62,801 nucleotides of DNA from Chara braunii. Its lineage: Eukaryota > Plantae > Charophyceae. The stretch covers positions 5,258,040 to 5,320,840 of the forward strand of contig BFEA01000010.1 of NCBI GenBank assembly GCA_003427395.1, read 5' to 3'. Position numbers and translations under genes: made by a program. The notes under the pieces were generated by a model that was not told the DNA's origin, made no database searches, and was given only the letters and a program-made list of their open reading frames with translations. This document shows, piece by piece, positions 12,170 to 60,000 of this stretch; within the stretch, counting starts at the first letter, position 1; every line of letters starts with the position of its first letter.

Positions 12170-15100
12170 TTTGGAACTGTTCTCTTACTTGGATGGTTGA
12201 CCTTTCCTTCCTCTCTTTGAGGTCACTGTAAGGATCAGATCAGGGTCTTTGAAGATGAATTTACGAAGTCTTGACCCTGATACCATGTCATGAACCCTGG
12301 ATCCATCAATCTTTGAAATCTCATAGACTTTGCCTTCTGCTTCTCCTGTGATTCTATAAGGACAAAGTCATCTAGGCTCCAATCGTTTAGACCCCCGAGT
12401 CTCAAGAGAACTATCAAACAGGAGGACAACGTCGTCAACTTTCAGTTTTTCTTTTCTTATATATATTTTCTTGTTCCGTTTCTCTTGATCTGATAATCTG
12501 TTGGATGACATTCTCTCTGCAGCATCCATCACTGCTTGATCAACTTCTAATATTTGTCTCATTCTGATCCGGAGGAGCTCTGGAATAGAATAGTCTCTGT
12601 CACTCTCGTGACTTGACCATGTCTTGACTATGTTCTCAATAGGCAAAGTAGCATACCGACCATACTACAAAGTGAATGGAGCATAGCCAGTAATCCTCTT
12701 GACAGTTATGTTGTCAGCATAAACAGCAACTCTTAATATTTTTAGCCAGTTATTGAGATTTCTTTCACACCATTTGGCCAATGAATCTTTCAAGGTTTTG
12801 TGACCTCTCTCGACTGGCGCATTCGCCTGAGGATGATAGGTAGTTACATATCGAATTATAATACCCAGTCTGAGAGTGGTTCTTCTTACAGTCTCATTTC
12901 TGTTCAAAACAAATTTTACTTTACAATGAAGAAATTCTAGTAGCTTTTAGTTTTTTGGGTTTTATTTTATTTAGTCAAAAAACTTTTGGCGAAACTTTCA
13001 AGGCTACTTTTGAAGCAAGAAGCGAATCTGTTGTTTCGGAATTACAACAACTCGTGAGTTCTCAAGAGGCTCTGCTGTTAGAGTTCTTGAAATAACATGA
13101 ATTACGTAGTATTAGTTTGCGTTCAAGTACGCAAATGATCGGAGAATCATGTATAAATGATATGATTACACGCTGCCCACCAAATTGCAAACAAACCGTG
13201 CAAGCAGTCTTATGTCAACAAATGGAACAAAAGTTGAATTCCGATCCTCTGTCTGAGATAAATTCTCTGATGAAGGGATACCTGAGATAGATTTCCTCTA
13301 TCCAGTCAGCCACTTGCTCGACTGTCTTTCTCCTCAGAGCCTTTGCCTCAACATAGTCTTTCATGTTCAATATGTATCTCATCCCTCCCTTGCCTAAGGG
13401 CATGGTGATGAGATCCAAATAAACTTTGCTGCCCGGTTCTACCAAAATAGTAGGAAATAAAGGTTCAATCATCCTTGTAGTAGACCTCTTCTGACATAAC
13501 ACACATGACTTACAACATCTGTAGATTATGTCCCTCATGTCAGACCAGAAGTAAAGTTTAACTGTCTTAGAGTAGGTTGCTTCAGCAGCTCTATGACCAC
13601 CAGCAACCCCCTCATGTATAACAATTATTATTTCCAGTTGTCTCTCCTTGCCACATACTCTTAGTGGAGGCAGTCCTCCCTTGCGATCCACAAAGAGGTG
13701 GTCTCGCTTAAGTCTGAACTTTTTCCTTAAATTATTGCAATGATATTCCTTCAAGTGCTCTTTCTCCATTTTCTTTCTAATCCCTTGGTAAATTTCATCG
13801 TACTCTTCAAAGATGAATGATATTTCTTCCTCTTTCTTTTCACCTTCTTCTTCTTCTTTCTTTGAGCCTGAACTTTCTTCTGTTTCAAGGGCTGCTACGA
13901 CCGCAACATTAATCTTTGCATACCAGTCATTCTGTTCTTCCTCTTCCTTCTTTTTGAGAATTGATTCATAGACATAAGCACCAGGGATTTCTCCCCAGCA
14001 GTCTCTTTCTTCAGGCCATACACTCCACTTATAGCCTTATAGGAGCTTGGTACTTCATAATCTTCATCATCTTTCTCATCTAGAAAATTATCAACATAAG
14101 AAGATTCTTCAATAGTTCTTTTAATATTTTTTTCTTCTTCATCTTTCCTCCATTCGATTTGACTTAGGCCATCTGCCCTGTTCTTCTCAGTTGGAATCTT
14201 TTCCAAGACAAAATCAAAAGTTCAAATGAAGGTTATCCATCTTCTCACTGTTGGATCTACTTGTTGGTGTTTCTTAATTGCAGCAATCAGATGCATCAGT
14301 TCTCAAAGTAAATCTCCTTCCAAGGACGTAGTGTCTGAAGCATCTGAGACAATGGATAATAACCAGTAGCTCTTTCCTGAACTGGGTGTAGCCTCTTTCT
14401 GTGGAGTTGAGAGTCCTGCTCTCAAACCTCAAAGGTATTTCCCTACTATTCTCATCTTTCTGTATGAGTACACCCCTAAGAGCTACTGGTCCTCCATCTG
14501 CCTCAATGATGAAGGGTCTTCCTTCTTCATCGTCATAGTAGGGCACTCCTAACACAACACCACCATCTTTTAATTTTTCTTGTAGGGTCTCTGCAGCAGT
14601 CTGCCTTTTCTCAGTCGAAGATAAATCATCTCCTTGTCTCACCATTTCTCTCAGAGGCTCTGCAAGAGTAACAAAATGAGGTATGAAAATCCTTTAGAAC
14701 CCACAGACACCCAAGAAGCTCATGACATCTGTCACCCGCTTGAGGGGCAGAGGCCAGTTCAAAATTTTGTCTATTGTCTTGGGGTCTGGGCTCCTACCAT
14801 TGGAGAAACATCCGAAACCCAGAATGGTGATCTCTGCTTGGAAGAGAAGCGACTTTGGTCCACAGGCAGTCAGATTATACTTTTGAAGTCTCTCTAGGAC
14901 TAGCTTCACACCTTCAACATGCTTTCAGACAAACTTCATGACACCATCCCTAACCAAAGCCTCATCTCTTATCATAGGTCCTTTCACAAGATTATCATCG
15001 ATATAGAGACTGGTTATCTCATGTGAGATATCCTACATGACTTTGATCATATCCCTTTGAACCACTGCCACACCATTAGTCCAACCTTGAGGCATCACGC

Positions 15101-16210
15101 ACATCTGAATGAGGCTCATTGGCGTGTGCATGACAGTTATTGGTCGGCTAGTGGGTTCAATGAGAAACTGATCATAGCCAGAATATAAATCAATTAAAGA
15201 ATAAATGCATCGACCAGCAAAAGATTCAGAAACGAGATCAGCATTAGGGAGGCTACCTGCATCACGTACCGTTACTGAGTTGAGCTTCTGAAGATTCTGT
15301 ATCCATCTTAATCCACCCCCTGGTTTCCAAAAGCAAAACCAGTGGTTAGCATACGGTCCATCAGGAGGTTCAGCAACATTAGATGCAATCTTCTTGTCAA
15401 GGTACTTTACCACTTCTGCCTCTTCTTTCAGGGCATACTTGGTTGGTCTGTCATTCCATGTGATGTGATCAAATGTCCAAATTTTTGTCATCTTAATCAT
15501 ATCCACATCCAACCACCTTCTTTCTTTATCATTAAAAGAGAATGCACCATCGAACTCTTGACACACCTTGAAGATATATTCCTTCTATTTAGGCAGAATA
15601 AATTGATCAGAGCCTATCTTCATCGTGTCAAACTTTTTCCTGGTGACTCTATTCCCAAATTTTGCAGACTCCCTTAATGCTTTGACAATTCTTCTTTCCT
15701 TTTCCAATGCCTCGTCATAATCCTTTTCTACCAGGACTGCCACTGGGGTCTTGTTCACCCCTTTGCATGATTAATGTAGATCGTTAAATAACCACAACCC
15801 ATGGTTGCAAATTTCATCTTGCATCCAGACAAGATCCTGTTAACCCGACTAGGAAAAACCGATCCCAAGTAATTAACTTTCATTCTCTTCTTCTCAATTA
15901 ATTTCTTCAATTTCTCTCTCAACTTGGGTGTTAGTGTCATTGCCTTCTTGAAGGACAATGCCCCCTCTGTTTCCTCCAACATCTTAGTAATTACATCAGT
16001 AATTACAGTTTCATCCTCTAATTCACTCTTGAGTAAAAACTTTTTCTTCTTCCCTTGCTCATTTCTCTTTGTTAAGGGTTCGGGTTTTTTGTCATCAAGG
16101 ATTTCAATCAGAGCCTCCTCGGCCTTCCTTCTTTTCTTTTCCTCTATCATTTGAGGGGTTAAATGTGCATGAACATTCCTCACTTCCCCAATCACCGAGT
16201 CCCGTTCCAT
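12170..16210 (-). pseudogene. pol: RT, RNase H, integrase; many stops and frameshifts; protease apparently deleted
   Basis: DLYSGYDQ, MPQGWTNG, YIDD (~15000); EADGGPVAL..KELL..RTD; HHCC zinc finger; SDRGSEF, YHPQANAPVER; LGPY motif. No D(S/T)G found between 15755 and RT. Confidence 0.93.
12903..13236 (+). pseudogene. atp4: Mitochondrial atp4 fragment inserted in the integrase core
   Basis: [38 protein letters not shown]; its removal restores SDRGSEFRNETVRR in frame. Confidence 0.85.
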
Positions 16211-16216: not shown

Positions 16217-17596
16217 TTATGGTGGTAAGTCACCTTCAAATGAAATCATGTTAGCCGAATAAGTAGACTTGTTAGGAGAAAGTACTGCCAACTGAGAGAA
16301 AATTTGAGGAGTCAAATACTCTCCTAACGAAGGCACAACTGGAATAATTTCATCAGTCACGTCCTCCACCAAAGAGAAAGACTGTAGAGGCAACTCAATC
16401 AATGTAAATGAATCATCAGGTTCTTGTACGAGTTCCTTAGGCAGTTCGCCTACGAATGTATGTACATTCACATTAGCCTTTCTTTTCTTCTTTTTCTTCA
16501 TATTTTCATCATGCTTAAGGACAAGAATTCGCATACCTCCAGTATGTTTGGGATCTAATTTGTTCCATGAACTGTCACAAACATGTTCTATTGCATCCTT
16601 CTTTGTCACCCCACTCTTCACATCTTCTTCCAGTGGCTTACAGTAAGTGGTAGTATGACCTCCTTCACCACAATAATAGCAGACAAATTTCTTCTTTTGT
16701 CGCTCGTCGTACTTTCTTCCCTTTCTGTTCTCTTTTTCACCATTCCCTCCATTATTCCTGGATCTGGAGGAATCCCCTCTTTTACCATAGTCGTCATCAT
16801 CGTCATCATCCTCATTAGCATCACTTTCTGTCTTTTTCTTTCCTTTCTCATCCACAACATGATTGGCAGGCATATAGTTGGTCATAACCCTTTGAATAAT
16901 ATTCTCAACATTCAGATTATTTCCTCTGCATAGATCATTCTCTGTCTCCCAGTCCTTAGCCAACGTACTGATCTGATCCAGTGACCACTTCTTGTGAGAG
17001 ACCATAGGCAAGGTTCTGGCAATTGCAACCATTTCATCCCATCTGAGAGGGTAATGTTGAGCCTGATTGAGGACTGCCTGCCTTTCAGTGTCTGTGAAAT
17101 TAGTCAGAAATATATGGCATATCTGGGCTTCATCCAAATATGACATTCTTCTTGCTGTTCGGATAAAATTCTTGAGAAAAACATTGAAAGTGTCATACTT
17201 AGCTCTTCTGATGTTGAGTAAATCCTTGGCTGTAGTTGGAACCGAGTCTTTCTCAAATTCTCTTTTTATTCTTTCCTTGATCTCTTCCCATGTAGTGGCC
17301 CCTTCCATCAACTCTAGAACAACCAACGTCAATTCAGTGTCACAGTAAAACAAAAGGTGCTTAAGTCATTGTTTGTCTATCCAACCATAACTGAGCCCAA
17401 ATAATTCTTATTCATCCAATAAATCATTCACTTGAGACCCTCTGAAACATGCAATCCTCGCATCTGGTCTCTGTGCTCTTGCAATATAAGATCCTCATTT
17501 TCTGGTGTCAACTCTTTCTACTAGTTCCCGTATGACACGTACCAGAGCCTCCTCATTAGTCCCTGCAGAAGAACCCGGTCTCCCTCGTCCCGCCAT
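16217..17596 (-). pseudogene. gag with CCHC zinc knuckle; stops in the N-terminal part
   Basis: CYYCGEGGHTTTYC; frame extends through stops to an ATG at 17596 (MAGRGRPG...). Confidence 0.88.
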
Positions 17597-17665
17597 CTTG
17601 ACCATAGACTCTCCTTGATACTCTTTCCTCTCTCTGTCACTTTCGTCCTCCCTTTCTCTTATTTT

Positions 17666-17932
17666 TCAATCTCTCACCCTTCTTGCTAGAGATACAGGTT
17701 CATTACTTTCTTCCCTTGTTTGTTGTATTCCTTAAGAATTTCGCATATAGAGCGTATAGGCAATAATAGACTGGGTAGTGATCAGGGGCAACGCAACCCT
17801 TCTCAGTCTTCCAATACAGTCCTCAATCAACTCTCTTTCAACATCCTTGCTCAGTCTTCTGTTATACCCTCTCACAGTTCCCCGAATCATAAAATATCGA
17901 GTCAAGTCTATAATCTCATAATCAAATTGCAT
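17666..17932 (-). pseudogene. Accessory ORF F (family 2), one internal stop
   Basis: ...RRVALPLITTQSIIAYTLYMRNS*GIQQTREESNEPVSLARRVRD. Confidence 0.62.
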
Positions 17933-17935
17933 AGC

Positions 17936-18226
17936 TTATGATCTGGTGTTAATCCTTCTAGCAAGAGAGACTCGTTCCTTGAAAGAGTGATATGATATTC
18001 TCTCAGGAGCTCCCTCTTTTACTACCTTCAATAGGTAGCTAATCTCAATCTGGTCAGTCACAACTCTCAACGCAGAGTCTCTCATACAATCAAGGAAGGG
18101 TTATAAGAACTCAATCTCATTCAAGGTAGAGAGGTTTCTGTCAGGAATCCGAAGAGTCCATTCTGTCTTGACTATTCTTCCTTCCAGCATAATCCCAAAT
18201 GTTAGCTGTTCAACCAAGCTGGGCAT
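17936..18226 (-). pseudogene. Accessory ORF E (family 2), one internal stop
   Basis: Manual translation: MPSLVEQ...EFL*PFLDCMRDSALRVVTDQIEISYLLKV...ERVSLARRINTRS. Confidence 0.62.
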
Positions 18227-18228
18227 TG

Positions 18229-18723
18229 TTAACCATCATAGGCAACATCTGAAAGATAGATCTCAGGTTGGACATAATCAGGGATCTCGAACCTGTGTTC
18301 AAAGATACTCAGAAGCAGAGATTTTATCAACACAATAGAGTCTTCCTCTCTGGCTCTACCTACCTCAGCAATAGTCTCCAGCAGAGGCATCCAATCTCTC
18401 CTGTCTTCAAATCCATCAACAATTGAGAACTCAGGGAGCCTCTCAAATTCTCTTACTCCCACTCCCCATGTCACTTTTCTTCTTAACTTTTCTATCGACT
18501 CTTTTGTTCGTTAGACACCAATATACGCCCTTTTTAAATACTCAAAATAGTTAGTTTCCTCCTCTAGACAGGCTAGAGAATAAACTCTCACGTCCAGACT
18601 GTCAGAGTTCATGAATTTAACCACTGGAACATGAAACGTTATATGTCCTCTCCCGCGAGTCTCATGCCTTAGGATTACAAAGGGATTATCATACCCTGTC
18701 ACCTCATAAAGTTTGCCCCTCAT
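18229..18723 (-). pseudogene. Accessory ORF D (family 1), one internal stop at 18511
   Basis: KFMNSDSLDVRVY...GV*RTKESIEKLRRKVTWG...DWMPLL, all in one frame. Confidence 0.68.
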
Positions 18724-18737
18724 AGTAGTTATCCTCG

Positions 18738-19232
18738 CTACTGAGAGTATTCTTCTTGGACCCTCTTCACTTTCCATACAAAATCTACCATGACTGACCA
18801 ATTATCCTTGGAAAACATAAGTCCCTCGATTAGTGGTGATGGTATCCCCAAAAAGGGTCTGACATATGTGCTCCAAAAAAAATTATTTCCTTCTCGTTCA
18901 AGTCTTATCTTTTCGTCATGCACTACGTCTGAAGCCCTTTGCCAACATCGACCTTTTCTACCCTCTTCAAACCTATGTTGTGGTACGTAGATCCTAACAT
19001 CAAACTCATCAATGTTGATAAAATAGCAAGTGAGAACATACATGCCATCAAGTTCCCACTCCTGATTTTTCAGGGCTTCATACCTCACAATCTCATAGGG
19101 AATCACAACTCTCCTCGTTATAGAATTAAGGGAATCAAGCAGTTTATCATAACCCTCTCTACTCAGTTTTCTATACCATCTCTCCGACATAAACCAGGAT
19201 TTCACCTTTAGAGGTACATATAACTGACTCAT
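18738..19232 (-). CDS. Accessory ORF C (family 1)
   Basis: LNSITRRVVIPYEIVRY..LTCYF..DVRIYVP..RCW..EKIRLEREG..NW; clear paralog of ORF B. Confidence 0.75.
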   Translation of the reverse strand: MSQLYVPLKVKSWFMSERWYRKLSREGYDKLLDSLNSITRRVVIPYEIVRYEALKNQEWELDGMYVLTCYFINIDEFDVRIYVPQHRFEEGRKGRCWQRASDVVHDEKIRLEREGNNFFWSTYVRPFLGIPSPLIEGLMFSKDNWSVMVDFVWKVKRVQEEYSQ

Positions 19233-19240
19233 TTGCGCTC

Positions 19241-19720
19241 TCAACCTCTTCCTCTCATCTTCAATGCAAGTTTGATCACGGCCGCCCAATTGTTCCTTGA
19301 CAGACTGTTACCAGGTAAAGGAGGAGTTGGGAACCCTTCAAAGACTGCAAACCGAGTAGACCCAATAAAACTCTTATTCTCCCTCTCAAGCCTTTTTTTT
19401 TCTCTCAACACAACCTCTTCAGCGAATCCCCAACATCTCTCATACATAGCCTCAGCACTTCTCTCTTTAGGGACATAGATCCTCACATCATAGGTATCCA
19501 GATCGGTAAAGTAGAATGTCAGAATGCAGAGTCGTTCCTGTTCCCATCCGCTCTCGACCATGTTATACTTGACGACCTCATACAGGAACACTTCTTTCTT
19601 ACTTAGAGCATTCAACGGTTTTATGAGTCTTTCAACCTTTTCATTGCTCGGACTTGAACCTCTGCCAAATTCTGACCTTCGCTGTTCGATTTCCTCTGCC
19701 GAGATTTCCTTCGTTTTCAT
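19241..19720 (-). CDS. Accessory ORF B (family 1), 159 aa
   Basis: LNALSKKEVFLYEVVKY..LTFYF..DVRIYVP..RCW..EKKRLEREN..PTPPLP..NW. Confidence 0.75.
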   Translation of the reverse strand: MKTKEISAEEIEQRRSEFGRGSSPSNEKVERLIKPLNALSKKEVFLYEVVKYNMVESGWEQERLCILTFYFTDLDTYDVRIYVPKERSAEAMYERCWGFAEEVVLREKKRLERENKSFIGSTRFAVFEGFPTPPLPGNSLSRNNWAAVIKLALKMRGRG

Positions 19721-19730
19721 GACAATACAT

Positions 19731-21493
19731 CTATTTCTCCCACTTTAGTACCATGTTGATGATTGGTAACCAGTCGTTCCCGTCATAATAGTTGTTAGGA
19801 ATATGAGGAATAGAAATTGTCTCATACGTTACATGCATTAATCCCCATTTCACTCTCTTCTTCTGTTTGATTAGGTCTGCCTTCTCATCATAAAGAGATT
19901 GGATCGCAATTCCCCATAACCTGTGTGTCTATTCAATGGGCAACGGGAAAGTTTCAACTCCGTTGTACCCATTGAATAGCCCCCGGGGCCCTGTTGAATT
20001 CCCGTTGAATAGTACAACGGGCCCCCCGTTGAATATTGTTCAACGGGGAGGGTGCATTGGGCCTCGGACACGACGTTGGACGCACGTGAACCAAAAAAAA
20101 ATCATCCTGTTGAATCCCCGTTGAATCCCCGTTGAATCCCCGTTGAATCCCGTTGAATCCCGTTGAATCCCCGTTGAATCCCGTCGAATCACCGTTGAAT
20201 CCCATTGAAAAAAAGAAAAAAAGGACGTCGTCCAAAAATTCCGGAAAAAAACTATGTTATGCAGAAAAATAAACTGAACAACGTTTGCCCCAGGGTCACA
20301 TCAAAACTCTTCACCAAAATTAAAANNNNNNNNNNNNNNNNNNNNNNNNNNNNNNNNNNNNNNNNNNNNNNNNNNNNNNNNNNNNNNNNNNNNNNNNNNN
20401 NNNNNNNNNNNNNNNNNNNNNNNNNNNNNNNNNNNNNNNNNNNNNNNNNNNNNNNNNNNNNNNNNNNNNNNNNNNNNNNNNNNNNNNNNNNNNNNNNNNN
20501 NNNNNNNNNNNNNNNNNNNNNNNNNNNNNNNNNNNNNNNNNNNNNNNNNNNNNNNNNNNNNNNNNNNNNNNNNNNNNNNNNNNNNNNNNNNNNNNNNNNN
20601 NNNNNNNNNNNNNNNNNNNNNNNNNNNNNNNNNNNNNNNNNNNNNNNNNNNNNNNNNNNNNNNNNNNNNNNNNNNNNNNNNNNNNNNNNNNNNNNNNNNN
20701 NNNNNNNNNNNNNNNNNNNNNNNNNNNNNNNNNNNNNNNNNNNNNNNNNNNNNNNNNNNNNNNNNNNNNNNNNNNNNNNNNNNNNNNNNNNNNNNNNNNN
20801 NNNNNNNNNNNNNNNNNNNNNNNNNNNNNNNNNNNNNNNNNNNNNNNNNNNNNNNNNNNNNNNNNNNNNNNNNNNNNNNNNNNNNNNNNNNNNNNNNNNN
20901 NNNNNNNNNNNNNNNNNNNNNNNNNNNNNNAATCTATCTGTTTTGAGTCTGGTTTTGTTTTTGATTTTTTAAAAATAAGTTTAATGCTAAAAAAATAAAA
21001 ATAAAAATATCAGGATGTAGAAAGCAAAAACATATACACCCCCATATTTTTTATTTTTTTTTCCACTTATGTTTTGCATGCAAAAAAAAAAATCCGCGGG
21101 CCGAGTTGTACCTCGTTCAACTCGGTTCAACGTGGAGTTGAAATGGGAGTTGAACGGGAGTTGAACCGTTCAACTCAAAACCCCTGTTGAATCCGATTTT
21201 GGACACATATCCCATAACTAGTTAACGGCTTCACCGTCGTCACAGTCTCCCTTATTGATATAAGGATGGATATCATAGATATCCTCCTCCAAGAAGCAAG
21301 CCAATACTGCACTGATGGCCGAATTGCCAGAACGGTAGACCCAACAATGTTCATACTGATAAGGTGATATTCCTTTAATAGTTACTTTCGATAGTTCTTT
21401 TAATGCATTAGTAGTTAGCCTTCTTGATAAAGTCTCTGATCTCTTGACCTTTTATTTTCCCTTCTTAGTGTTCCAAAGACATAATAGGCTCAT
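19731..21493 (-). pseudogene. Accessory ORF A (family 1), split by the 19921-21210 insertion, two stops
   Basis: Excising the insertion and one TSD copy joins PYQYEHCW..DIHPYINKG..AVN*LW to GIAIQSLYDEKADL..KRVKWG..IPHIPNN..NDWLPII in frame. Confidence 0.72.
19921..21210. mobile_element. hAT-like DNA element, no transposase seen (contains an N gap)
   Basis: Perfect 8-bp TSD CCCATAAC (19913-19920, 21211-21218); degenerate TIR CTGTGTGTC / GACACATAT; dense subterminal GTTGAA/TTCAAC repeats. Confidence 0.8.
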
Positions 21494-21745
21494 GAGGCAT
21501 ACCTAAGATCAAGCCTGATTCTCTTCAACTGTAGTATCAATCTCCTTCTTCGATCCAATGTGGTACCCCACACAAGGAAACATAAGATTCAGTTAGCAAT
21601 TAGGTTTTCCAAGAGAATAATGACTCAAGAAAGATTGCAAAATCAGTTTGAAAAATTCAGGAATTGTCAACAGTTCTCAAGGCCTAATCAAAGCTCAAAA
21701 CTATTTGCAGACCCAGGTTCGTTCCGGACACGAAAAATTTTCATG

Positions 21746-21763
21746 TCCCCGGCAACGGCGTTA
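21746..21763 (-). promoter_or_regulatory. Primer binding site complementary to the tRNA-Asp(GUC) 3' end
   Basis: Plus strand TCCCCGGCAACGGCGTTA vs plant tRNA-Asp end TCCCCGGCAACGGCGCCA (two C>T changes); 4 nt from the 5' LTR. Confidence 0.88.
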
Positions 21764-22252
21764 TTTTTGTCGCACTTTTTTTAGTCGGGCCCCTTCGGGC
21801 GACCAGAAAGTCAACAGGCTGTCACGCAGGATTTAATTGATATTTGCAATACATAAAATAAATTAAATAAAACAAATACCTTCCTGTTGTGTGCGTCCGG
21901 CTACGAGCGAGATCCTTCAATTGCGGTCTTCGCCGATCCCCGGTCTTAGGAATCTTTAATTGTGATTAGGAACAGCAATGATGATGCAAATAATAAAATC
22001 AAATTAAATATGCTATGTGTGTATCAAGATGCCAATTCAGAGGATTGAGAAATGCGACATAATCAGCAAGGAAATACAATCACCAGACAATGCCAGAAAA
22101 GAAAATCAAGGTTGGCTGACTCAAGGTAAGGACAAGGTGAATGAGGGAAGAATGAGAACTCGTAATAGTCTCAGAAAGTATACATGAAAGAGAGCATGGT
22201 CAACACTAATCTCGAGTCCTCACTCATCCCTCTGGGTCACACTCACAATCTC

Positions 22253-22909
22253 TCATTTGGTTGTTTGTTCCTTGTGCTTTCGACCATGTCTCCGTACTCT
22301 CTGAGGTTGTGGTATCTGTATGTAGAGCCACCTGAAGCCTTCAAGCTCAGAACACTTCCATCCAAGTTCTATGATACGGAAATCAACCGTAGCACAAAAC
22401 TCCTCCCATAGTGTGGGAAGATATGGTTGAGAGAAAATCCCTCGTCTGAGATGCGGGAACTCGGACGGCTCTGTTACTACCTCGTAATCAATCACTGCTG
22501 GAGAGATATACCTCTTGGCCAGATCAATTAGGTCACCCCAGTGAGAACCGTCTATCAGAGTAAACGGTATCGGAGGTCTGGGATAGTCTGAGTACAGCTT
22601 TGGTCCGAAGCTGGGAATCAGCTTAGTACCCCCCTCATCAAGCTCCTTTTCTCTCTCCTCAAGATACATGACTGCCACAGTCCAGACTGAGTCAAAGTGC
22701 TCATGAGTCTCCTTCCCCCTCTTTACATAGGGTCTCAAGTCATGAACGGTGCCACCGACGAAACTGGTGAGGATGACGAAGATTGACAGATCTCCCTTCT
22801 TGAAACTGACTGCACTGACATATTGGTATTGGACAGCGTCTTTGAGTGCGATCTGGTTTAGATTGGCCAATACTGACCCAATGACTGTAAATGACTGAAT
22901 TGTACTCAT
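22253..22909 (-). CDS. 5' LTR copy of the family 1 accessory protein (218 aa)
   Basis: Counterpart of 595-1203; 16 aa longer because the other copy has CAG>TAG. Confidence 0.7.
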   Translation of the reverse strand: MSTIQSFTVIGSVLANLNQIALKDAVQYQYVSAVSFKKGDLSIFVILTSFVGGTVHDLRPYVKRGKETHEHFDSVWTVAVMYLEEREKELDEGGTKLIPSFGPKLYSDYPRPPIPFTLIDGSHWGDLIDLAKRYISPAVIDYEVVTEPSEFPHLRRGIFSQPYLPTLWEEFCATVDFRIIELGWKCSELEGFRWLYIQIPQPQRVRRHGRKHKEQTTK

Positions 22910-23146
22910 GTATGATAACTACTGCCCCTTTGACCTTCTCAGGTTCACTAGACTGTCTCAGTGATCGTGACTGAGTTGATTGCAGCTCGCGTTCTGATAG
23001 TGTACTGTGTTTCTGATTAAAGCCAGCTCATCCTCAAATCCCTAATGATAAGACGTAGCTTGTCCCACGACTATCTCACTCATCTCTCCTAGCTTACTTT
23101 TACCGATCGTTTATAGGTTCCTTTTGAAGTGCGTGACCAGATTCCT

Positions 23147-23401
23147 TCACTGTTCATCATCAATAACCCTTCTTGCCTGCTCAACTAACCCTGCGACTAA
23201 GAGGGTGCTCTGTAATTCCTTATCTGATCCATGGATGTAGAAGGTGTACTCAACAAATTCCTGGTCCTTCACTAGCACTAAAGCCTGTTCCATCATAAGT
23301 TTTAAGTAGTAATGGTGGTCTCGGGCCACACTTTCTTCCCAGCCTTCGGTCACATCGTGGTGCGGAGTGCAAGTCACCCTCAATACGTCCTCACCCCCCA
23401 T
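23147..23401 (-). CDS. 5' LTR copy of the family 2 accessory protein (84 aa)
   Basis: Counterpart of 1441-1695. Confidence 0.62.
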   Translation of the reverse strand: MGGEDVLRVTCTPHHDVTEGWEESVARDHHYYLKLMMEQALVLVKDQEFVEYTFYIHGSDKELQSTLLVAGLVEQARRVIDDEQ

Positions 23402-45990: not shown

Positions 45991-46288
45991 GTGTATGTGT
46001 GTGTGTTATAAAACAAATTGCAAAGCAATTGCACAACCTGGCCTAACCAGGAACAGTATTGAAAAAAACATATCACTCATAGTCACAAACAAGCATAGCA
46101 TCTTGCTAGAGTATCGCTTGGGTCACCTTCGTACACCTACTGCCATAGCTCACCTTCTTTTATTACCCAGCATACCTCGAGATAGGAAAGAAGGGGATTG
46201 GTAGAGGAGTGGAGGGGGGGGGGGCGAGAGAGGGAAAGGTAGATGTAAGAGAACCTTCTTCGGCAGGACCGATCTCCGGAGGGTGGCG

Positions 46289-46341
46289 CATCCCTGAAGC
46301 GCTTTTCGCCGTTTGCGCCAAACGGCTCATCAGAGGGTATG
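46289..46341 (-). ncRNA. Minimal type I hammerhead ribozyme, intact core
   Basis: CCCT-CTGATGA-GCCGTTTG GCG CAAACGGC-GAAA-A GCGC T-TC-AGGG; palindromic stem/loop III AAGCGCTT. Confidence 0.88.
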
Positions 46342-48536
46342 ATGGGCTACGTCCTTTAGGTGGCCTTCTATATCGACTGATCCGATCACCAGTGCAGTAG
46401 GGGCGACCTTCGTAGCTCTTAGGAGGGAGTGGACGGTATGTGTATGGAGGGGGTGAGGGTGTCAGAGGAAGTGGAGGTCCGCTTGTAGATCTGGGTGGCA
46501 TTCTACATCTTCTGGACCGATTACCAGAGGAGGGGGGGAAACCCATGTAGCGTTTAGAGAGTGGATAGTGAGCCGAGGGGAGGGTGGGCGGGCATAGACG
46601 AAGGTTGAGGGCTATTTTTGGGAGTGGGGCATATTTTAAATCAGGGTTGTAGGAGAGGGTGTCAGTAGGTATGAAAGGTTTGGGATGGGGGGTTGAGGGT
46701 AGGTGGGCGATCATACCACGTGCACGTTGATTTCTGCGTCTGTGACTTGTCCGTCTGTTGCAGAGGCCATGGTGGACATTGTTGGAGGATTGCGGAGCTC
46801 TGATACACTGAGTCGATGTTGTTCTGCGTGGTGCAAAGCCACGGCTGCACCTTGGTCATGTGTGTGTCCGAGGCTTGCCTTGCTTGCCAGCAACGACGTA
46901 TGCAGCAGAAGGAAGGAGCTTGCGCTAGCGTTACAGTACTTGGCGCAGTCTGATATCTCCAGACTGTGCTACTGATGTCTATGAACATACCGGTTCCGTG
47001 GGAGTTTGTCAAGACATCGGTATGCCGTTCGAGTGAGGAGGAACTAGGTGTCCTCCTGTGTATTTATGCAGTTGGTGTATGCTGCACCAGTGTACGGCTA
47101 GTTGTTGGGGAGTAGCGTGCGCTATGTGCAGTGTCTACACGTTTTCTTGTAGTTGCATTACTCCTGTACCTTTTAGCAGGCTGAGGTTTTTTTTTTTGGG
47201 GGGGGCGGGTGCGCTATTGGTTGCTTGTGTGGTGCGATGGGCGCCATATTTGGCCGTGTGGGTATGGGGGTTTATGATTTATTTTTTTGGGTGGGGGTAG
47301 CGCTCATCTCTATCCGTGTATTCCTGTTGTTCTGGGGGGAAGGCTAATCATGAATTCTTTTTTGTAGGGTGTAGCAGACCATCTGTGCGTTGTGGCTTGG
47401 CGGGGGGATCTTTTTTGGTCTGTCCGTAGCGATTATGCTCTTTTTTTTAATTAAAAAAATTGAAGGAGTTTTTTGTTTTTTTTGTTCTGGTTATGGCAGT
47501 GCTTGCATGGTTTCTGTCTTGCGTTAGCGCCAGCTCGTGCTTGTGCTTTGTTTTTCTTGGGTTACTTGTCGTTTTCGCAACTTTGTCTTTTACTCTTTTC
47601 TTTTTGAGGGGGCGACTTAGTTCATGTTTTCCGGTTCAGTCTCGGTGTAGTTGACTGTGGACGTTTTTTTTTGTTACTGGTTCCTGTTGCTTTAGTTGCT
47701 TTAGGCCTGTGTATGGTTTTATAGGGGGGTTCTCTCTTTTTTGGGGTGTTTTTTTTTTTGTTTTTTTTTTTGGTGGTGGTGCATAATGTTCTATTGGGGG
47801 GGTTTGGTATTTATGCAAGGGTTTCCGTGGGGTGTGTGTATGTGTGTGTGTGTATCGTGGCTCGTTTTTTTTTATTGGGGGGTAGTGTTTTGGTGGGGAT
47901 GTTTGCGTGTGCTATTTACCATGGTTTTATGGCTCCGTTTTTTCGGTTTTCGATTGGTCTTTGCTTTTTGTGTTTGTCATTTAGTAGGCGAGGTGGTCCG
48001 TGCTGAGTGGGTTTATTGGCGTTTCGTGGTTTTGTCATTTTTGTTTTCTTTTTTGTTTTCATGCTGACGGTGTGCTTTTCATATTTTCTTTGGCTTTTAG
48101 TAAGGTATTGTATTTCTGTGGTAGTGCTCTGCTTGTACGGGTTTTATTGGGGGGGGTAGGGTTTTTTTCTTTGTTTTTTTTTGCGTTTATTTTTTGGTGG
48201 TGGAATTATGGGTGTGTATTAGGTAGTTGTAGTGCTCTGCTTGTACGGGTTAGTAAGTTGGTATTTTCTGTATCGTATATCTTGTTGTTTTGTCTAGATG
48301 ACCTGTAGGGGTTTGTATGCTGTGGTGCTTCCTAATGTATCTGGTCCATATGTTTACTAGTATGTGTTAGATAGTTAAAACTTTATTATTTTTTATGTGT
48401 GTTTTTTATATATATATAAATAAATAGTAGGTGTTTGTGTCCCTCCCACTTTCCCACGTGATGGGGGGCCGGAGGGGGCAGGTGTACGGATGACGACCCT
48501 GCCCCTTCCGAGGCGCCGCCATCCGTACCAGATTAT

Positions 48537-48667: not shown

Positions 48668-50122
48668 TTAGTAGGTAGTGGTGTTAACGAGGACGTTTTC
48701 GACTATCCCAATGCATTTGTGTGGGTTAAATCCATTATGTTTCATTTTTTGTATTACATCGATTAAGTCTTTTGCTGCTTGTAATGGGTGTGATGTGTCT
48801 GTCATGATGTTTATAGCCTGTGGGATAAGTATCTTAAGTGATTGCAAGATGGATCTTTTCGAGTCAAATTTAAGGAATCTATTGATGAAGAAGTTGATTT
48901 TTTTTCTTTTGTCATATTTTCTTGTCTCGAATGTGCCAGTTGTGTGGTCAGTGATAGTGAGTGTTGTGCTCAATAAATTACACTTGGTCCCTGTATATTG
49001 GTTGTTCTGTAGGGTGGTTTCTGTTGTCGGTTCGTTGAGTGTCACAAAGTTGAGTGGGTATAGGTAGTACTTACTTCTTTTACTTTTAACTTTCGGGGTG
49101 ACGAATTCCTTGATTCTGGATTATTGATACTGTTGAGATCGTCAAAGTATCTGAATGTGTGCTGGAATAGGGGAAGCAGATGGAGGTTGGAAGTTAGTCG
49201 TAGTTTTTTCGTGAATTTGTATTCGTAGTGAAAGAAGTAGATGTTGCACCACATTGGTGAACAGCTTAGGCCCATTGGTATTCCGAGGATTTGTTTCCAT
49301 GTAGCACCACCAAGTATTGTGTATGCATTTTTTATGAGTCAGTTATTCATCTTTTGGATGTCGTTTGCGGTGAGTACTGTGGTGTTGGTTAGTCTGATTG
49401 AGGTACATGTTGCATCAATATGGAGGTCTTGGTTCTTTTCTTTGATGATGCAGCCAATGCCGGCGTTTCTGCCGTATACTTTTCTTGCTTCTTTGAAGGC
49501 GAGATCGATGAAGAATTGATGGTTGTTGGCAGGCCATCTTCTGATTCATCTGTTGGGATTGTTTCATAGAATCTAGTGATGTCAGCAGAGTAGAGGTTAT
49601 GAATATATGTAGCTAAATTGTAGATATAGACCGATACTGAGTCAACTATCCACCAGAAAGACACTTTAACGCCATATTCTTGTTCTGTTAGTCGTGTAAG
49701 ATCCCCGCAGTGTTTTTTTACTGTTAGTGTTAGTTTGCTGAGTATAGTTGCGCATATGTCTGCTAGTGGTGAGAAAATGACGTCAGAGGCATTGGTTAGC
49801 CATCAAAACGAGTTTTTATGTTTTTTGTAGGTTGCCATGAGGTAGGGCAGTTCCGTGTTTTTTATGGGAACGAATGGGAACAGTGTTTCTATTTGGTATT
49901 TTAGTATTCTGATTAGATCGGGCATAGTACATCGCAGGGGGTGAAATCGTTCTCAGTGAGTCTTCTTAGGGCTAGGTATCTTATGAAGTTGATGCAGGTA
50001 AAAGTGGGTGTATTGGGTGTCAGCTCCAGCATGGCGGAGTTTTTACGGGAGGTTATCATATATGTGATGAAGGTACATGAGGATGTTCCGGATGCATACG
50101 TCGGCTCGGGTGAGGATATCAT
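48668..50122 (-). pseudogene. Penelope-like reverse transcriptase, frameshifted
   Basis: YSADITRFYETIP, WKQILGIPMGLSCSPMWCNIY, FRYFDDL, KYDKR. Confidence 0.85.
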
Positions 50123-52125: not shown

Positions 52126-53254
52126 TGCATCTCAATCTCACGGTTCAAGCTCTTCAGAAATTCATTTAGAGACTCAAGCTAAGCTTGTTTTAATGCGGTT
52201 ACGAGAGTGGATAATTTAGGAGGAAGTGGTGATAGTAGCCAGGGCGATGTATTTTTAGCACATGCCTGTGGCGGGTTATTATAGTGTGTAAGTTTGTATG
52301 CAGGGGGATCTTGTGTGTGCATAGTGAACTGAAGGAGTGGTAGTTGGTTTATATCTACATGTCATTGCGTGGCTTTATGTAAGACGATTTTAGTAGTGTT
52401 TTTCGTGTTATGGTCATATTTTGAAGAGTTGGTGGCGGTTCACAGGTGGATGGGTGAAATTAATAGTATGTGGCTGCACGTATCGTGTGTGTGTGTTTTT
52501 GTGGGGGATGAAGTTTTATATGTGTGTGACGGTAAGCAAGGATCATAGTGCATTGTATAGGGACGTTTTAGGTACTGTGGTTTATGCGGGCCAAGTAGTA
52601 ATGGGTGAGCTCTTCGGATAGGATGAGGGGAGGTGGGTTGGGGTGGGGGTGAGGTATTAGTATATTGCGATTGGTGTGAGTTTATAAATGTTTGTTTACA
52701 TGAGTATATATGGGTGCTTGGTTGACTGGGGCGGAGGAGGGGGTGGTGGTGGGAAAGTCGACTGATTGTAGTGCGTTGTGGTTGGGCTAAGGAGTTTTAT
52801 CAAGAGTGCGTTAGCATTTCAGTTGTGTATCCCAGGGTCTACCACGATAAGCTAGCAAATTTTAGCAAGTTATGTCGAGTGCGTAGCTATTTCATACGTA
52901 CTGTAAGGTGGGGAGTCTACCCTCACAATTGTATCAAGGCTCAATAGCCAGTGTGTGTGTTATAAAACAAATTGCAAAGCAATTGCAATACCTGGCCTAG
53001 CCTAGAACATTATTGAAAAAAACATATCACTCATGGTCACAAACAAGCATAGCATCTTGCTAGAGTATCGTGTGGGTCACCTTCGTACACCTACTGCCAA
53101 AGCTCGCCTTCTTTTATTACCCAGCATACCTGGAGATAGGAAAGAGGGGGACTGGTAGAGGACTGGAGGGGGGACGGGGAGAGAGAGAGAGAGGTAGATG
53201 TAAGAGAACCTTCTTCAGCAGGACCGATCTCCAGACCGAGGAAGGAGGGTGGCG

Positions 53255-53307
53255 CATCCCTGAAGTGTTTTTCGCCGTTTGCGCCAAACGGCTATTCAGA
53301 GGGTATG
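53255..53307 (-). ncRNA. Mutated copy of the type I hammerhead
   Basis: Stems I and II intact, core CTGAATA, loop III ACAC. Confidence 0.7.
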
Positions 53308-55249
53308 ATGGGCTACGTCCTTTAGGTGGCCTGCTACATCGACTGGTCCGATCACCAGTGGAGTAGGGGTGACCCTCGTAGCTCTTAGGAAGGAATGGAC
53401 AGTATGTGTATGGAGGGGGTGAGGGTGTGAGAGGAAGTGGAGGTCCGCTTGTAGATCTGGGTGGCCTTCTACATCTTCTGGACCAATTACTAGAGGAGTG
53501 GGGGCGACCCATGTAGCGTTTTGGTGGGAGAAAATGGATAGTGAGCCGAGGGGAGGGTGGGCGGGCATAGACGAAGGTTAAGGGTTATTTTTGGGAGTGG
53601 GGCATATTTTAAATCAGGGTTGCAGGAGAGGGTGTCAGTAGGTATGAAAGGTTTGGGGTTGGGGGTTGAGGGTAGGTGGGCGATCATTACCGCTGTCGGC
53701 GCGAATACCCTTACAAGGGTATCCGCCCTGGTTTTTGCAGATGGCAGAAGATGTGGGTTTGGTTAAAATAAGCCGTGCAAGGCGTGACCTCGTCCGGGAC
53801 CCGCCTGGGCTAAGCTAGGAGGTGTGTGGGCGCGCAGTTTTAAGGCGAGCGTGTAATTTTTTTTGTTTGAGTGGGCCGCCGGTCTAGTCGACCGATCCGG
53901 ACCGTGCCATGGGTTTGATTAAGGGATATAAGTTCGTTTTTTTGGTTGGCGCGCGCGACCGACGGTAGGATTGGCGCACGGGGTGGCGCGCGGGGGCAAC
54001 CATGGCGCGGTCTGGGTAAGCCGGCGCGGCTGCCTAGTGATGGCATGCCGGTTGTAGGGCCTAGGCTGTTTTTCCCAGGCCTAGGCACCACGTGGCACCA
54101 CTTCATATTGGAATCCGCGCCTAGTTGTTCCAAGCTGGGACATAGCCCTATAGGTCACGGTGTTGGACTACTGCTATGGAGGTTTGGGGATCGAGGCCGG
54201 TAGGCAGCCGCGCGGGAGCACTGGAGCAGCGGAAGGCTAAGGGGTTGAGGGTCCTGCAGGACTATCCCCCTTTTGTTTTGTCGGGGGAGTCTGGTCGTAG
54301 GCCCCGCCCCTTGGCACTAAGCCAGTCCCTCCCCCTCCTGACAGTATCTCGGGATGCTTGGGTTGGATTTGTTTTTTTTATTTTTATTGTTTTTCCAGGT
54401 TTTTGATGGCCCCGTTTCTGTTTGAGGACCCGACGCTGGCCCGCGGCCGCAACCCCCGCCGGCAGACCGGGAGTAAGGAGGCCGAGAGGCCTTTGGCGCC
54501 GCCACGGGGCATTACCCCGGCCGGAGTCCTTCGGGACTTTTGTAACGGTACGGAGAAGATCTGCACAGCCCCAGCGCCAGGGTGGGGCACGAAGAATCGG
54601 AAGGAACCCGAATGCAGACTGCACGGGGTACGCCCAGGCAAGAGGGGCCAAGGGGTGGGCGGATTGCCCCACGACCACAGTCGCCCGGCGGCGCCTGTTG
54701 CAGTAGCAAACAGGCGCCGACTGGTGTAAAGTCCTCCGGGACGTCTGGCAAAATTGGAACGACACAAAGGAGATTAGCGCGGCCCCGCGCGCGACCGATA
54801 CGCATAAATTTGGAGGGGGGGGGGCAGCGCCGGTTGTTAGTCGGTGCTTCGTATCGGTGACACTGTGGTCGGGACGGAGCGGTGCGGAGTGGCGTACGAG
54901 GTAGGGGTGATTGGCGGTGGGGACGACAGGATAGTGAGCTCGGCGCAGCAGTGGCGTAGATCAGAGGCAAGCAGTGGGGATAGGTGCAACGCACGGCTCG
55001 AGACGACGGGTGCGGCTACAGTGGTCGGGCGCAGAGCTGGCGATAGCGGGGCGACGGTGGGGGCGGGAGCCCGGTGAGGTGTAGGCGGGGGCGAAAGTGG
55101 ACAGTGGGGAGGAGACTGTGCAGAGGAACGGGCTATAGAAGGGAGTGCACCCGGACGCCATCTGCGTCCGGATTCATTCACAGATGGATCTGGGGAAGGT
55201 TGGGAGGAAGACAGTATTGTGTGCAGTTTGATTGGGTCGTTAAGGCTGG

Positions 55250-57055: not shown

Positions 57056-60000
57056 GTGGCGACTCTGGCGATCCACCCTGAATAGGGGAGATTCTGCCAT
57101 TGGCCTACCTTTGCTTTGGGCACTGGCTAGAGGTAGACTTGGATTAGTTGGCAGACAACTTGAGTAAGGATGTGCTATGGAGGTCCATCCCCCATATGCT
57201 GATGATTTAACTTGGGCATTGACCTGTCTTATGGCACAGGCCTTCTCGGACGTTTGATTCAGGACTTGGACTAGTTTCATCTCGATCCTATAAGGATCGT
57301 CTTCTGTTATCGCTGATAACAGGTCGGTTGTCGATCTGTCGGTCTACGAATCAATTCCAACTCACTCTTCATACCCAATCTAAAAGGCTTTAGCCCTGGT
57401 GACTTTATTGTTTGTTAAGGGTTTCACCCAGACTTTTATTGAATGGTCATTTGACAAAGGTACTGAGTATTTAATTATGGTTGGTTGGACAGGAGGTTGG
57501 GGCTTGCATGGCTAAAGCAAGGGGTATGAGTACGGAGATTGTTTGGGGTTGACTCCGTGTAGTGCGTGTTTTGTTGTTCGATTCTTGATGTGATTGCAGG
57601 TATGTCCTGTGACTCGGATTTTGAATTTGGATTGCCTGCGATCCCATATATATACATATGGTTGTGAGGAGTCCCACTGTGCCTGTGAGAAGTGATCGTT
57701 GGAGCTCTATCTCCCTTATGCGTGTATGCTTGGGTGTACCTATGGTGGGTGTTCGCGAGGCCTAAAGGACCCCGCGTTTAAAACCTGCTTAAAGGTTAAG
57801 ACTGAGAGGCATAGGGAATACCTTTCCTTTTGCTTGTTTGCTTCTTGGGGGTTTCTTAGTCGGATGTTAGCCTTGGGCCGAGATTCAAGGTACTTGTCCA
57901 GGACATCCCTATCCCTAGACTCTGTAGGGGAAGAGCTTCCCCTCGCGCAGAGCCTATCTGCACTGGCCGTCGAGACACCTAACCCTGAAGGCGGAAATGT
58001 CGCGAGGGCCGAACGGCATGTCCTTCAGGCGTTCAATATCGTGAGGGGTGACCCCTCGCGATATATTCTTTCAGCCATTCAATATCGCGAGGCCGGAGCC
58101 GCCATCACCGCACATGACTAGCATCATCGGTCGGTACAGGATTGGCCTGCGGCCGCGCGACTTTATATTGAAGTTCTGCATGCGACGCTTCGCCACCCTG
58201 GCTTCTAAAGGTTATGGGACCAAAGGATTTATATGTGTGCACGACTGTCCAACAGTGATATAAGCCGCGGTAGCAACCAAAAGAGAAACGGGGATACCCG
58301 AATCGTGATTTTTTTGAGGACAGGGGGGGGGGCCTTCGGCCTACTCTTGCTTTTTAAGATTTGTATAGTTGGACGTTGTAGTCCGTGGCAGCCGTCAAAG
58401 TCAAACCCCTTGACTTCCGACCAGGCCTGGAGTAGGACTCATCCCCAGGGCCGCGAGAAACGACTGCCACCACATGTACGAACCTGTGTACCACCCGCTC
58501 TGCATAAGGTGCAGAAGAGGGTGTGTGGTCTCCAACCGCGCATGACGGTTGTCCAGCTTCGAAAGATTGACCCTCAAGGCGCGTGTCAGCCGACACTTGA
58601 GTGTCGAATGCGACCCTCGAGATTAACGAGGACCGCATGAGTATGTGTACTACATGGTACGCCATAAGTGCGACTGCTTGCGTACGTTTGGATTGCTAGT
58701 CGGTATGAGTAGGCCCTGCGTCCGCGCAGTTTTATACTAAGTCTCGCGCACGACGCCCATTTGACTTCCGCATCGAAAAGTTATGGGTTGGCTACCGAGG
58801 GGCTAGGAGCGTTGTCGCGTTGTTTGTGTTGTGTCGTGTTGTATGTGTGTGTGTGTTTTATTTTTGTGTTTGTAAAGTGGTGTGCTTGTGGTGTGTGGGA
58901 TGCGCTCTAGTCGACCGACGTCGAGCCGCGCTTGGGACTTCAGCCCCCCAAGATGTCGGTTCCCGTGCGGGCCCGACAGGCGTATTACCGCGCGTGCCCC
59001 CTATGCTACAGCGATCGAGAAACGCCCTCGGCTGGTCCACCTCTGCGATTGCAACTGATTAGCTTTCGTACTGTGAACTGGAAGCTCGGCGGGGATACGC
59101 CCACCGAAGGGAGGTGACACCTCCCGTAAGGTGGAGGTAAGTTGTGCCTCGCGTAGGCCCTATCTTGTCGTAGGGGCTCGCGAGAGGTATGGCTGGCGCA
59201 CTCGGCCGGAGCGGCCTAAGGAACTCCTTTTGCGTGTTCGTAATGAGGTCGGTCCAACTCCTGCGTGACACGACCGAGAGGGTCCCACGCTGCCACATGC
59301 GGTGCCGGACCGATGCGCTCGACAGCGTGCACGTTGATTTCTGCGTTCGTGACTTGTCCGTCTGTTGCAGAGGCCATGACGGGCATCGTTGGAGGATTGC
59401 GGAGCTCTGATACACTGCAGTCGAAGTTGTTCTGCGTGGTGCAAAGCCAAGGGTGCACCTTGGTCATGTTGTGTGTCCGAGGCTTGCCTTGCTTGCCAGC
59501 AGCGGCGTATGCAGCAGAAGGAAGGAGCTTGCGCTAGCGTTACAGTACTTGGCGCAGTCTGATATCTCCAGGCTGTGCTACTGATGTCTGTGAGCATGTC
59601 GGTTCCGTGGGAGCTTGTCAAGGCATCGGTATGCCGTTCGAGTGAGGAGGAACTAGGTGTCCTCGTGTGTATTTATGTAGTTGGTGTATGCCGCATCAAT
59701 GTAGGACTAGTCGTTGGGGAGTAGCGTGCGCTATGTGCAGTGTCTATACGTCTTCTTGTAGTTGCATTACTCTTGTAACTTTTAGTAAGCTGAGTTTTTT
59801 TTTGAGGGGGGGGGGGTGCGCTATTGGTTGCATGTGTGGTGCGATGGGCACCATATTTGGCCGTGTGGGTGTGGGGGTTTATGGTTTATTTTTTTGGGTG
59901 GGGCTAACCGTGTATTTCTGTTGTTCTGGGGGGAAGGCTAATCATGAATTCTTTTTTGTAGGGTGTAGCAGACCATCTGTGCGTTGTGGCTTGGCGGGGG

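Follow-up and report, generated by a model that had tools for sequence, protein, structure and literature searches.

An eight-ORF array of two paralogous families upstream of gag in a large Ty3/Gypsy element of Chara braunii

LTR retrotransposons are usually viewed as needing little besides gag and pol, and the extra open reading frames (ORFs) described in plant elements number one or two per element and mostly lie after pol. Retroviral genes located inside LTRs include MMTV sag and HIV nef. Large Gypsy elements specific to Chara were reportedly described by Nishiyama in the 2018 Chara genome paper. The Ogre/Athila/Retand (OTA) elements are very large and non-chromovirus-like, with multi-kb LTRs and extra ORFs that have no assigned function (PMC6317226, PMC6431247, PMC7264820); Ogre carries one or two such ORFs (PMC6431247). 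In the Caulimoviridae, the capsid and RT genes are preceded by several small ORFs separated by gaps of a few nucleotides (PMC5902531). A protein of an LTR element that is none of gag, pol or env is encoded by Cer1, whose CERV exports genomic RNA (PMC10309623).

The window analysed here, a 62,801-nucleotide stretch of the C. braunii contig BFEA01000010.1 within which all positions are given, contained a decayed Ty3/Gypsy LTR element of 28.5 kb on the minus strand, with LTRs at 63–6784 and 21768–28572. Its core features were:

21768–28572, minus strand: 5′ LTR of ~6.8 kb, TG...CA, 91% identical to 63–6784 over 6815 columns (self-BLAST)
21745–21763, minus strand: putative primer binding site (PBS), recognised from the sequence, just inside the LTR end
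16217–17605, minus strand: gag, with its ATG at 17605, three internal stops and a visible CCHC zinc knuckle
12180–16210, minus strand: decayed pol (RVT_1, RT_RNaseH, Integrase_H2C2, rve_3), with RT, RNase H and integrase in Gypsy order
7600–9900, no strand assigned: mitochondrion-like fragments forming a mosaic in the 3′ internal region, with an SSU rRNA match at 7901–8290
63–6784, minus strand: 3′ LTR, with a purine tract before it (~6795–6803)

The two TG...CA LTRs, the PBS, which we take to be similar to the tRNA-Asp type, the polypurine tract and the order of gag, RT, RNase H and integrase placed the element in Ty3/Gypsy. The mitochondrion-like fragments include translations presumably related to nad6, rps4 and ccmF. 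Pfam analysis matched gag to PF03732 below the cut-off (E = 0.0013) and detected no protease domain in the decayed pol. No chromodomain followed the integrase in three frames, to position 12100, so the element does not classify as a chromovirus. The second, archaeal-type RNase H that distinguishes Ogre was not seen between RNase H and integrase (Pfam, three pol frames), where a very diverged domain could escape in so decayed a copy. PF10536, PF03078 and PF04195, domains that mark only 16–57% of OTA members, were also absent. The element flanks, GCGG and GCGA, fit a 4-bp NCGN target duplication with one mismatch; NCGN is the target site of Phygy, a non-chromovirus Gypsy of Physcomitrella (PMC6317226), although Phygy elements are short and without extra ORFs.

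The element differed from OTA members in carrying eight small ORFs, in two paralogous families, two of them inside the LTR:

23147–23401, minus strand: ORF U, 84 aa, in the LTR, third member of the E/F family; copy at 1441–1695
22253–22909, minus strand: ORF L, 218 aa, in the LTR, fifth member of the A–D family; copy at 595–1203 (202 aa)
21493–19731, minus strand: ORF A, interrupted; 5′ piece 21219–21493 with two in-frame stops, 3′ piece 19731–19920
19921–21210, no strand assigned: nested non-autonomous insertion interrupting ORF A, with a 605-nt assembly gap
19241–19720, minus strand: ORF B, 159 aa, intact
18738–19232, minus strand: ORF C, 164 aa, intact
18229–18723, minus strand: ORF D, 164 aa, one internal stop
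17936–18226, minus strand: ORF E, 96 aa, one internal stop
17666–17932, minus strand: ORF F, 88 aa, one internal stop

A first-pass annotation of this DNA had reported six consecutive ORFs, A to F, oriented like gag-pol, and these were recovered with stop-to-ATG gaps (A|B to E|F) of exactly 10, 8, 14, 2 and 3 nt; the gap from F to gag was 60 nt. The array is not, as had been thought, confined to the interval between PBS and gag, as it begins in the LTR with U (family II) and L (family I), continues with A, B, C and D (I) and E and F (II), and is followed by gag. U and L were open in both LTR copies, and the spacing was wider at U–L (237 nt) and L–A (~760 nt, an interval that includes the LTR end and PBS). 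The single stops previously read through in D, E and F are present, and to these must be added the two in A. The splitting of A by a transposon was corroborated, since the insertion lies between 8-bp target duplications (19913–19920 and 21211–21218) and contigs joining 19911 to 21213 represent copies with the empty site. We consider it very probable that the element had this eight-gene, two-family architecture upstream of gag.

The proposed paralogy of A–D held for most pairs. Against 1000 shuffles, B–C (z = 42; ~38–39% protein identity), A(3′)–B (z = 13), C–D (z = 10) and A(3′)–D (z = 9) were strong, B–D (z = 4.4) and A(5′)–C (z = 5.2) were weaker and A(5′)–D was at background (z = 0.4); A–D were significantly alike. 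E and F formed the second family as claimed (z = 8), and hhalign found no similarity between the two families (probability 0.15%). L matched family I (tblastn E ~1e-6; z = 14.8 with B and 14.2 with A). U scored 11.2 bits against the E/F profile, above a shuffle maximum of 8.1 (4767 of 5000 shuffles scored), and the E/F motif occurred only at U (both LTRs), E and F. A tree of family I (12 rows, excluding A, which is split in two pieces) was mostly unresolved, with strong values on 2/9 inner branches.

Identity between B and C by codon position was 0.60/0.65/0.42, with 6/18 fourfold sites identical, and the same order recurred in E–F, C–D and A–L. Contigs from genomic runs X1 and X4 covered every cassette bin at summed depths of 208–7118, against ~7–20 for single contigs; the cassette is present in many genomic copies. 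At the internal stop of D, 111.3/143.6 (X1) and 50.4/50.4 (X4) differed, so that most other copies are without it. Internal stops numbered 8, against ~5.8 expected from LTR divergence. Among 12 listed of 43 indels, those in E and D formed compensating pairs, and the non-triplet ones fell in the F–gag spacer, leader, insert and LTR. These patterns show past coding constraint on the duplicated array. Variants between copies were read from 40 listed of 2156, the junction stops and ATGs being those of this copy, and the ones setting it apart were mostly nonsynonymous.

This last pattern is what decay predicts, and it would suit an array that is captured, mostly relic cargo, once coding elsewhere and now unused by the element. 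The element did capture DNA, as its mitochondrion-like fragments demonstrate, and transcript evidence was lacking: RNA reads of runs X5 and X6 were few, mostly <95% alike and from both strands (41 and 49 over the cassette bins), and they followed DNA depth (Spearman 0.88). Yet the copies keep the frames, whole frames and shared motifs persist in paralogs that have diverged to 20–39%, L has an excess of synonymous differences, and no cellular, bacterial or viral donor was found among 1.84 billion representatives, PHROGs, NCBIfam or IMG/VR. We therefore regard relic cargo as very unlikely.

The two LTR copies of L differed by 22 synonymous and 23 nonsynonymous changes, the former exceeding the 12.1–14.5 expected (p = 0.0006–0.003); the excess for U was not significant (p = 0.05–0.27). 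The excess in L is odd, as neutral decay is expected of two LTRs.

Relatives of family I were stand-alone short proteins on metagenome contigs and one C. braunii gene model. B was related to P0011 (54%) and GBG64722.1 (66% over 57%). Six family I proteins of 81–161 aa came from ENA contigs, and 4/6 ended 12–16 residues past the conserved Trp, as do A, B and C. P0015, one of 7 HMM matches, was dropped as spurious, being a 1318-aa repeat protein (E 5e-5). Word-based protein searches kept 1/7993 candidates for longer family I proteins and confirmed 0/54 near the length of C and 0/193 for the E/F alignment, leaving no stand-alone E/F relative; none of the pattern matches in JGI metagenomes (189 + 147) or IMG/VR (110) was confirmed. 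Pfam gave no match to a described retrotransposon ORF family and returned nothing for A–F, L, U or their relatives. PHROGs, NCBIfam and PDB sequences gave nothing significant, with one sub-threshold match to VraH. A bacterial-operon origin was rejected, as no prokaryotic relative was found.

In PDB and BFVD, Foldseek found nothing that matched the AlphaFold2 model of B (pLDDT 72, pTM 0.66) at E ≤ 0.001 (best Z 5–6). Similarity of family I to the gelsolin fold was weak (Z 5.2–6.0, rmsd 3.7–3.8, 77–78 aligned), as were the Atlas matches of P0014 to the EEP nuclease fold (TM 0.52–0.59, all under the tool's bar); the Atlas held no usable match for C, and the model of E was poor (pLDDT 61, pTM 0.41; best Z 5.3). 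No transmembrane segment was found among A–F and L (top 19-residue hydropathy 1.29). An env-like ORF was ruled out on this ground and because the ORFs precede gag rather than follow pol. Small soluble alpha/beta proteins are the predicted products; having no known catalytic motif or membrane segment, they would most likely be binding adaptors acting on element RNA or host factors. The first-pass annotation suggested a host-conflict role such as anti-silencing. Duplication with strong divergence would fit such a conflict, and domains of other retrotransposons have been proposed to counter silencing (PMC6338049), but neither motif, family nor fold ties these proteins to any suppressor; that they are silencing suppressors or chromatin-targeting factors, rather than adaptors for RNA export, packaging or translation, seems to us rather unlikely.

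A single fused polyprotein had been named as a finding that would overturn the array. From A to E there is no such read-through frame, as the reading frame changes at A|B, B|C, C|D and D|E, all but one of the five junctions. A common frame runs through E, F and gag, with the 60-nt spacer open, and because of this the separation of these three is something that we infer. E and F might instead be tandem N-terminal Gag domains of an E-F-spacer-Gag polyprotein, with stops due to decay and only family I forming a gene array. The same frame does hold five other decay stops, and the lack of a stand-alone E/F relative would suit this. However, in E, F and the two copies of U the terminal stop falls at a homologous place, 3–6 residues past the ARR motif; U stands alone in the LTR; and +2 and -1 indels in the F–gag spacer are common to 4–5 contigs. 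Tandem Gag domains are thus highly improbable.

The remaining question is how gag would be reached. The ~70 upstream AUGs would block a scanning ribosome on full-length RNA, so gag needs a non-canonical route. Leaky scanning of the RTBV/badnavirus type was ruled out, as internal AUGs, unlike in RTBV, are abundant (71 ATG in 2596 nt against 58 expected). The explanation that we prefer, with a probability of roughly 45%, is that the eight ORFs would be separate accessory genes, arisen by tandem duplication within the element and translated by sequential reinitiation from an LTR-driven RNA. A ribosome would terminate and restart nearby at the next ORF, as on caulimovirus pregenomic RNA, possibly with help from a product of the element itself. 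A paralog begins at each junction ATG, and the chance of an ATG ≤14 nt from a stop is ~0.34 per junction and 0.005 for all five. Gaps of 2–14 nt, kept through duplications old enough for silent-site saturation, fit termination and restart nearby. At the gag-pol boundary, too, a stop is followed by an in-frame ATG 6 nt on (16217/16210), so short gaps can have other origins. TGGGA, which we take to be the 18S-pairing TURBS motif of caliciviruses, was found ≤100 nt upstream of 1/9 starts only and 5 times in the cassette against 3.9 expected, which does not indicate TURBS. Junction hairpins were not consistent, a fold z of -2 being reached in 1/18 junction windows. All five gaps lie inside the 20-nt window given for viral reinitiation (PMC10275272).

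The eight could also be real genes with a separate spliced or subgenomic mRNA for each, the tight spacing being a by-product of compact duplication. That is the standard eukaryotic route, shared by retroviral accessory genes and by CERV, which is made from a spliced Cer1 mRNA (PMC10309623). YAG lies ≤30 nt from 6/9 starts, and U and L lie too far from the adjacent ORFs to be reached by reinitiation and might be expressed from an LTR promoter or the 3′ LTR. Against this, no YAG occurs within 30 nt of the starts of C, gag and U, the 50-mers upstream of C, D, gag and L are purine-rich and U-poor (T fraction 0.10–0.20), none of the 15 joints listed of 362 had RNA support, at low depth, and five gaps all ≤14 nt are left unexplained. 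Separate mRNAs are, in our estimate, somewhat unlikely. CERV and the retroviral accessory genes are moreover single genes with spliced mRNAs and no paralog array, and no sequence similarity was found.

For sequential reinitiation, the nearer comparison is with the Caulimoviridae. The "prokaryote-like operon" of the first-pass annotation is better replaced by caulimovirus-like packing, for which there is a plant retroelement precedent (PMC5902531): here too consecutive long ORFs have stop and start a few nucleotides apart. CaMV ORFs I–III are spaced by one nt, and the transactivator TAV acts there without need for a cis element; TAV-like activity is, according to PMC5902531, not known outside the family. 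The present element differs in having LTRs and an integrase, in the paralogy of its small ORFs and in lacking any match to the movement protein or TAV families. Calicivirus reinitiation proceeds at 3–20% per event (PMC10275272), so with six or more such events hardly any Gag would be made unless a transactivator helped. Neither family nor fold comparison matched any of the products to TAV, though they may include an unrelated analogue. It is quite unlikely, in our judgement, that a charophyte Gypsy lineage independently evolved a caulimovirus-like polycistronic genome in which serial reinitiation is activated by one of eight paralog-derived products, belonging to two new families and partly encoded in the LTR; if true, LTR retrotransposons would have their first translation system of this type, and TAV-like activity its first case outside the Caulimoviridae.

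The element is of a known kind, an LTR element with extra ORFs, and is unusual in their number, paralogy, packing and LTR location. No paper listed by our literature search describes such an array; REXdb supplements and Repbase entries may also bear on its novelty. The REXdb survey considered extra ORFs of at least 250 codons only and would thus miss ORFs of 84–218 codons; if the architecture alone holds, such length cut-offs hide arrays of this type. The array offers two protein families that have no known relatives, along with natural junctions at which reinitiation after long ORFs could be tested in the green lineage, and it poses a testable problem, how Gag is produced when six or more ORFs precede it on the RNA. 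An eight-gene, two-family array grown by duplication and spilled into the LTR would amount to an accessory expansion like that of complex viruses.

The first-pass annotation had described six ORFs, A to F, between the PBS and gag of a Ty3/Gypsy LTR retrotransposon. These were confirmed, with stop-to-ATG gaps of 10, 8, 14, 2 and 3 nt and a division into two families (I, A to D; II, E and F) which hhalign showed to be unrelated to each other. The chance of five such short gaps is ~0.005, before adding that every ATG opens a paralog. An insertion of 1290 nt, bearing an 8-bp target duplication, splits ORF A, which additionally contains two stops. The count of six was too low, as two more members, U and L, had been missed in the LTR.

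Features of the array and its LTRs
21768-28572 and 63-6784, minus strand: LTRs (~6.8 kb each), 91% alignment
23401-23147, minus strand: ORF U, family II
22909-22253, minus strand: ORF L, family I
21493-19731, 19720-19241, 19232-18738 and 18723-18229, minus strand: ORFs A, B, C and D, family I
18226-17936 and 17932-17666, minus strand: ORFs E and F, family II
17605, minus strand: gag ATG

ORF L was found as a tblastn match of A and B to the LTR; it is open in both LTRs and is similar to B (z=14.8) and A (z=14.2), but not to D (z=1.1). ORF U, 237 nt upstream of L, scored 11.2 bits against the family II profile versus a shuffled maximum of 8.1. Across all six frames, the window has the family II motif at four places: E, F, U and the 3′ LTR copy of U. 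Pairwise support for U was modest (z=2.1-5.7). The array thus begins with U and L, continues with A to F in alphabetical order and ends at gag.

The element is 28.5 kb long and on the minus strand. Its LTRs have TG...CA termini and differ by substitutions at 7.6%, spread evenly along their length; the flanks are GCGG and GCGA. The 4-bp target site (59-62 and 28573-28576) is of the NCGN type, like that of Phygy elements (passages of PMC6317226). The order gag, RT, RNase H, integrase is that of Gypsy elements, and this coding region is broken by several stops and frameshifts; Pfam analysis of the pol frames revealed no chromodomain and no second RNase H, and no protease domain was detected in the element. 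At 16217-16210 the gag stop is followed 6 nt on by an in-frame ATG that opens a lysine-rich ORF, either decay or a genuine gag-pol junction. The 3′ internal region (7600-9900) is a mosaic of mitochondrion-like fragments, that is, organellar DNA inside an LTR element, with an SSU rRNA match (7901-8290) and pieces which we take to be nad6-, rps4-, rps7- and ccmF-like. Elsewhere in the window, fragments at 29058-29671 and 33051-33482 presumably resemble a Helitron PIF1-type helicase, and those at 48668-49802 may be Penelope/RT-like. The window also has a second long direct repeat (46861-47160 and 59470-59769; 94%, 12.6 kb apart), with more related copies near 46163-46855 and 53117-53584, which is possibly another repeat element.

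Contigs from two genomic runs, which may have supplied the data for this assembly, covered every cassette bin at a summed depth of 208-7118 with up to ~65 contigs per site, so the element family is multi-copy. Contigs joining 19911 to 21213 represent copies without the nested insertion. That insertion (19921-21210) is high-copy and non-autonomous; its terminal repeats are imperfect, and tandem repeats of 9-10 nt (GTTGAATCCCC-like) lie close to both ends. At the internal stop of D, most contig depth differs. Among the 12 indels shown of 43, the six inside E and D form pairs that restore the frame, and the non-triplet ones lie outside ORFs. Within 21768-24200, related DNA reached a summed depth of 2,700-81,000 over the inner 1.1 kb of the LTR and was scarce (about 100-225) above 22875; relatives therefore have the L-containing end in common, not the upstream LTR.

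The fused polyprotein that the first-pass annotation had named as the alternative does not hold for A to E. The A|B, B|C, C|D and D|E junctions are out of frame, so a polyprotein would need four frameshifts, each placed exactly on a domain boundary. A fused E-F-Gag protein is a live rival, as E, F and gag share a single frame and the 60-nt spacer before gag is open; against it, the stops of E, F and both copies of U come 3-6 residues past the ARR motif, and +2 and -1 spacer indels are common to several contigs.

Codon-position identity in paralog pairs followed the order second > first > third (B-C 0.60/0.65/0.42, fourfold sites identical 6/18), with first and second equal in B-L, a pattern somewhat favoured by protein-guided alignment. 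Between the LTRs, L (22253-22909 versus 595-1203) showed 22 synonymous and 23 nonsynonymous differences, the former against 12-14.5 expected (p=0.0006-0.003); the result for U was not significant. The excess in L was unexpected, since LTRs identical at insertion should decay neutrally. Gene conversion from another copy of the family may explain it, as may chance, and as a sign of coding constraint it is suggestive. A to F and gag contain 8 internal stops, where LTR divergence predicts ~5.8, a count that fits decay of this copy.

No sequence match for the cassette proteins was found in Pfam, PHROGs, NCBIfam or PDB. A profile of B, C and D, searched against 1.84 billion representatives, found seven: five short ENA proteins, a Chara braunii gene model and one repeat protein, the last judged spurious. 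A sixth ENA protein came from a cluster look-up. The ENA proteins lie on contigs of 509-667 nt, and where they stop could simply be where the contig stops; P0011 is B-like (54%) and P0016 is nearest A and L. The gene model, the only named relative, has a B-like stretch fused to gag/RT sequence, the sole fused form seen, and was read as an annotation artefact; it makes Chara braunii or a near relative the probable host. For family II, a word-based protein search with the E/F alignment gave no relatives outside the window, and the structure model was poor. The AlphaFold2 model of B (pLDDT 72, pTM 0.66) runs from a first helix through a three-stranded meander, then a long helix and a strand, to a last helix. 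Fold searches scored at the level of common arrangements only, including gelsolin fold matches (Z 5-6); EEP nucleases recurred, all sub-threshold, and the invariant F, D, R, Y and W are presumably unlike the EEP active site. Hydropathy of A-F and L indicated no transmembrane segment. The proteins are inferred only to be small soluble binding proteins.

Plain or leaky scanning to gag was ruled out, as 71 AUGs in the 2.6 kb upstream (nested insertion removed) put gag out of reach; RTBV-type leaky scanning requires AUG-free ORFs (passages of PMC5902531). Reinitiation, to which we give a probability of about 0.45, would have the ribosome terminate and restart at a nearby ATG, ORF after ORF. The gaps lie within the 20 nt that separate stop and start in viral reinitiation (passages of PMC10275272), so the spacing fits. 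CaMV reinitiation needs a transactivator and no cis element (passages of PMC5902531). Against reinitiation, no recurring TURBS motif or hairpin was found at the junctions, U and L are loosely spaced, and many rounds without an activator would give a low yield. The main rival, separate mRNAs made by splicing or as subgenomic RNAs, is somewhat less probable; acceptor-like context is poor at several starts. RNA reads from two runs were sparse, divergent and unstranded, with depth tracking DNA depth, and so were not taken as cassette expression.

Plant Gypsy elements are well known to carry extra ORFs, as a rule one or two of them and for the most part downstream of pol (PMC7264820, PMC6431247 and PMC5408684). 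The broadest survey of extra ORFs set a 250-codon minimum, which places all eight ORFs of this array outside it (passages of PMC6317226). No account of such an array was found in the literature searched, the Chara genome paper and Repbase being outside that search. Gypsy is the dominant LTR class of C. braunii (passages of bioRxiv 835561). It is improbable that the cassette forms a self-activated polycistronic translation system; the array architecture is real and apparently undescribed, with two new protein families.
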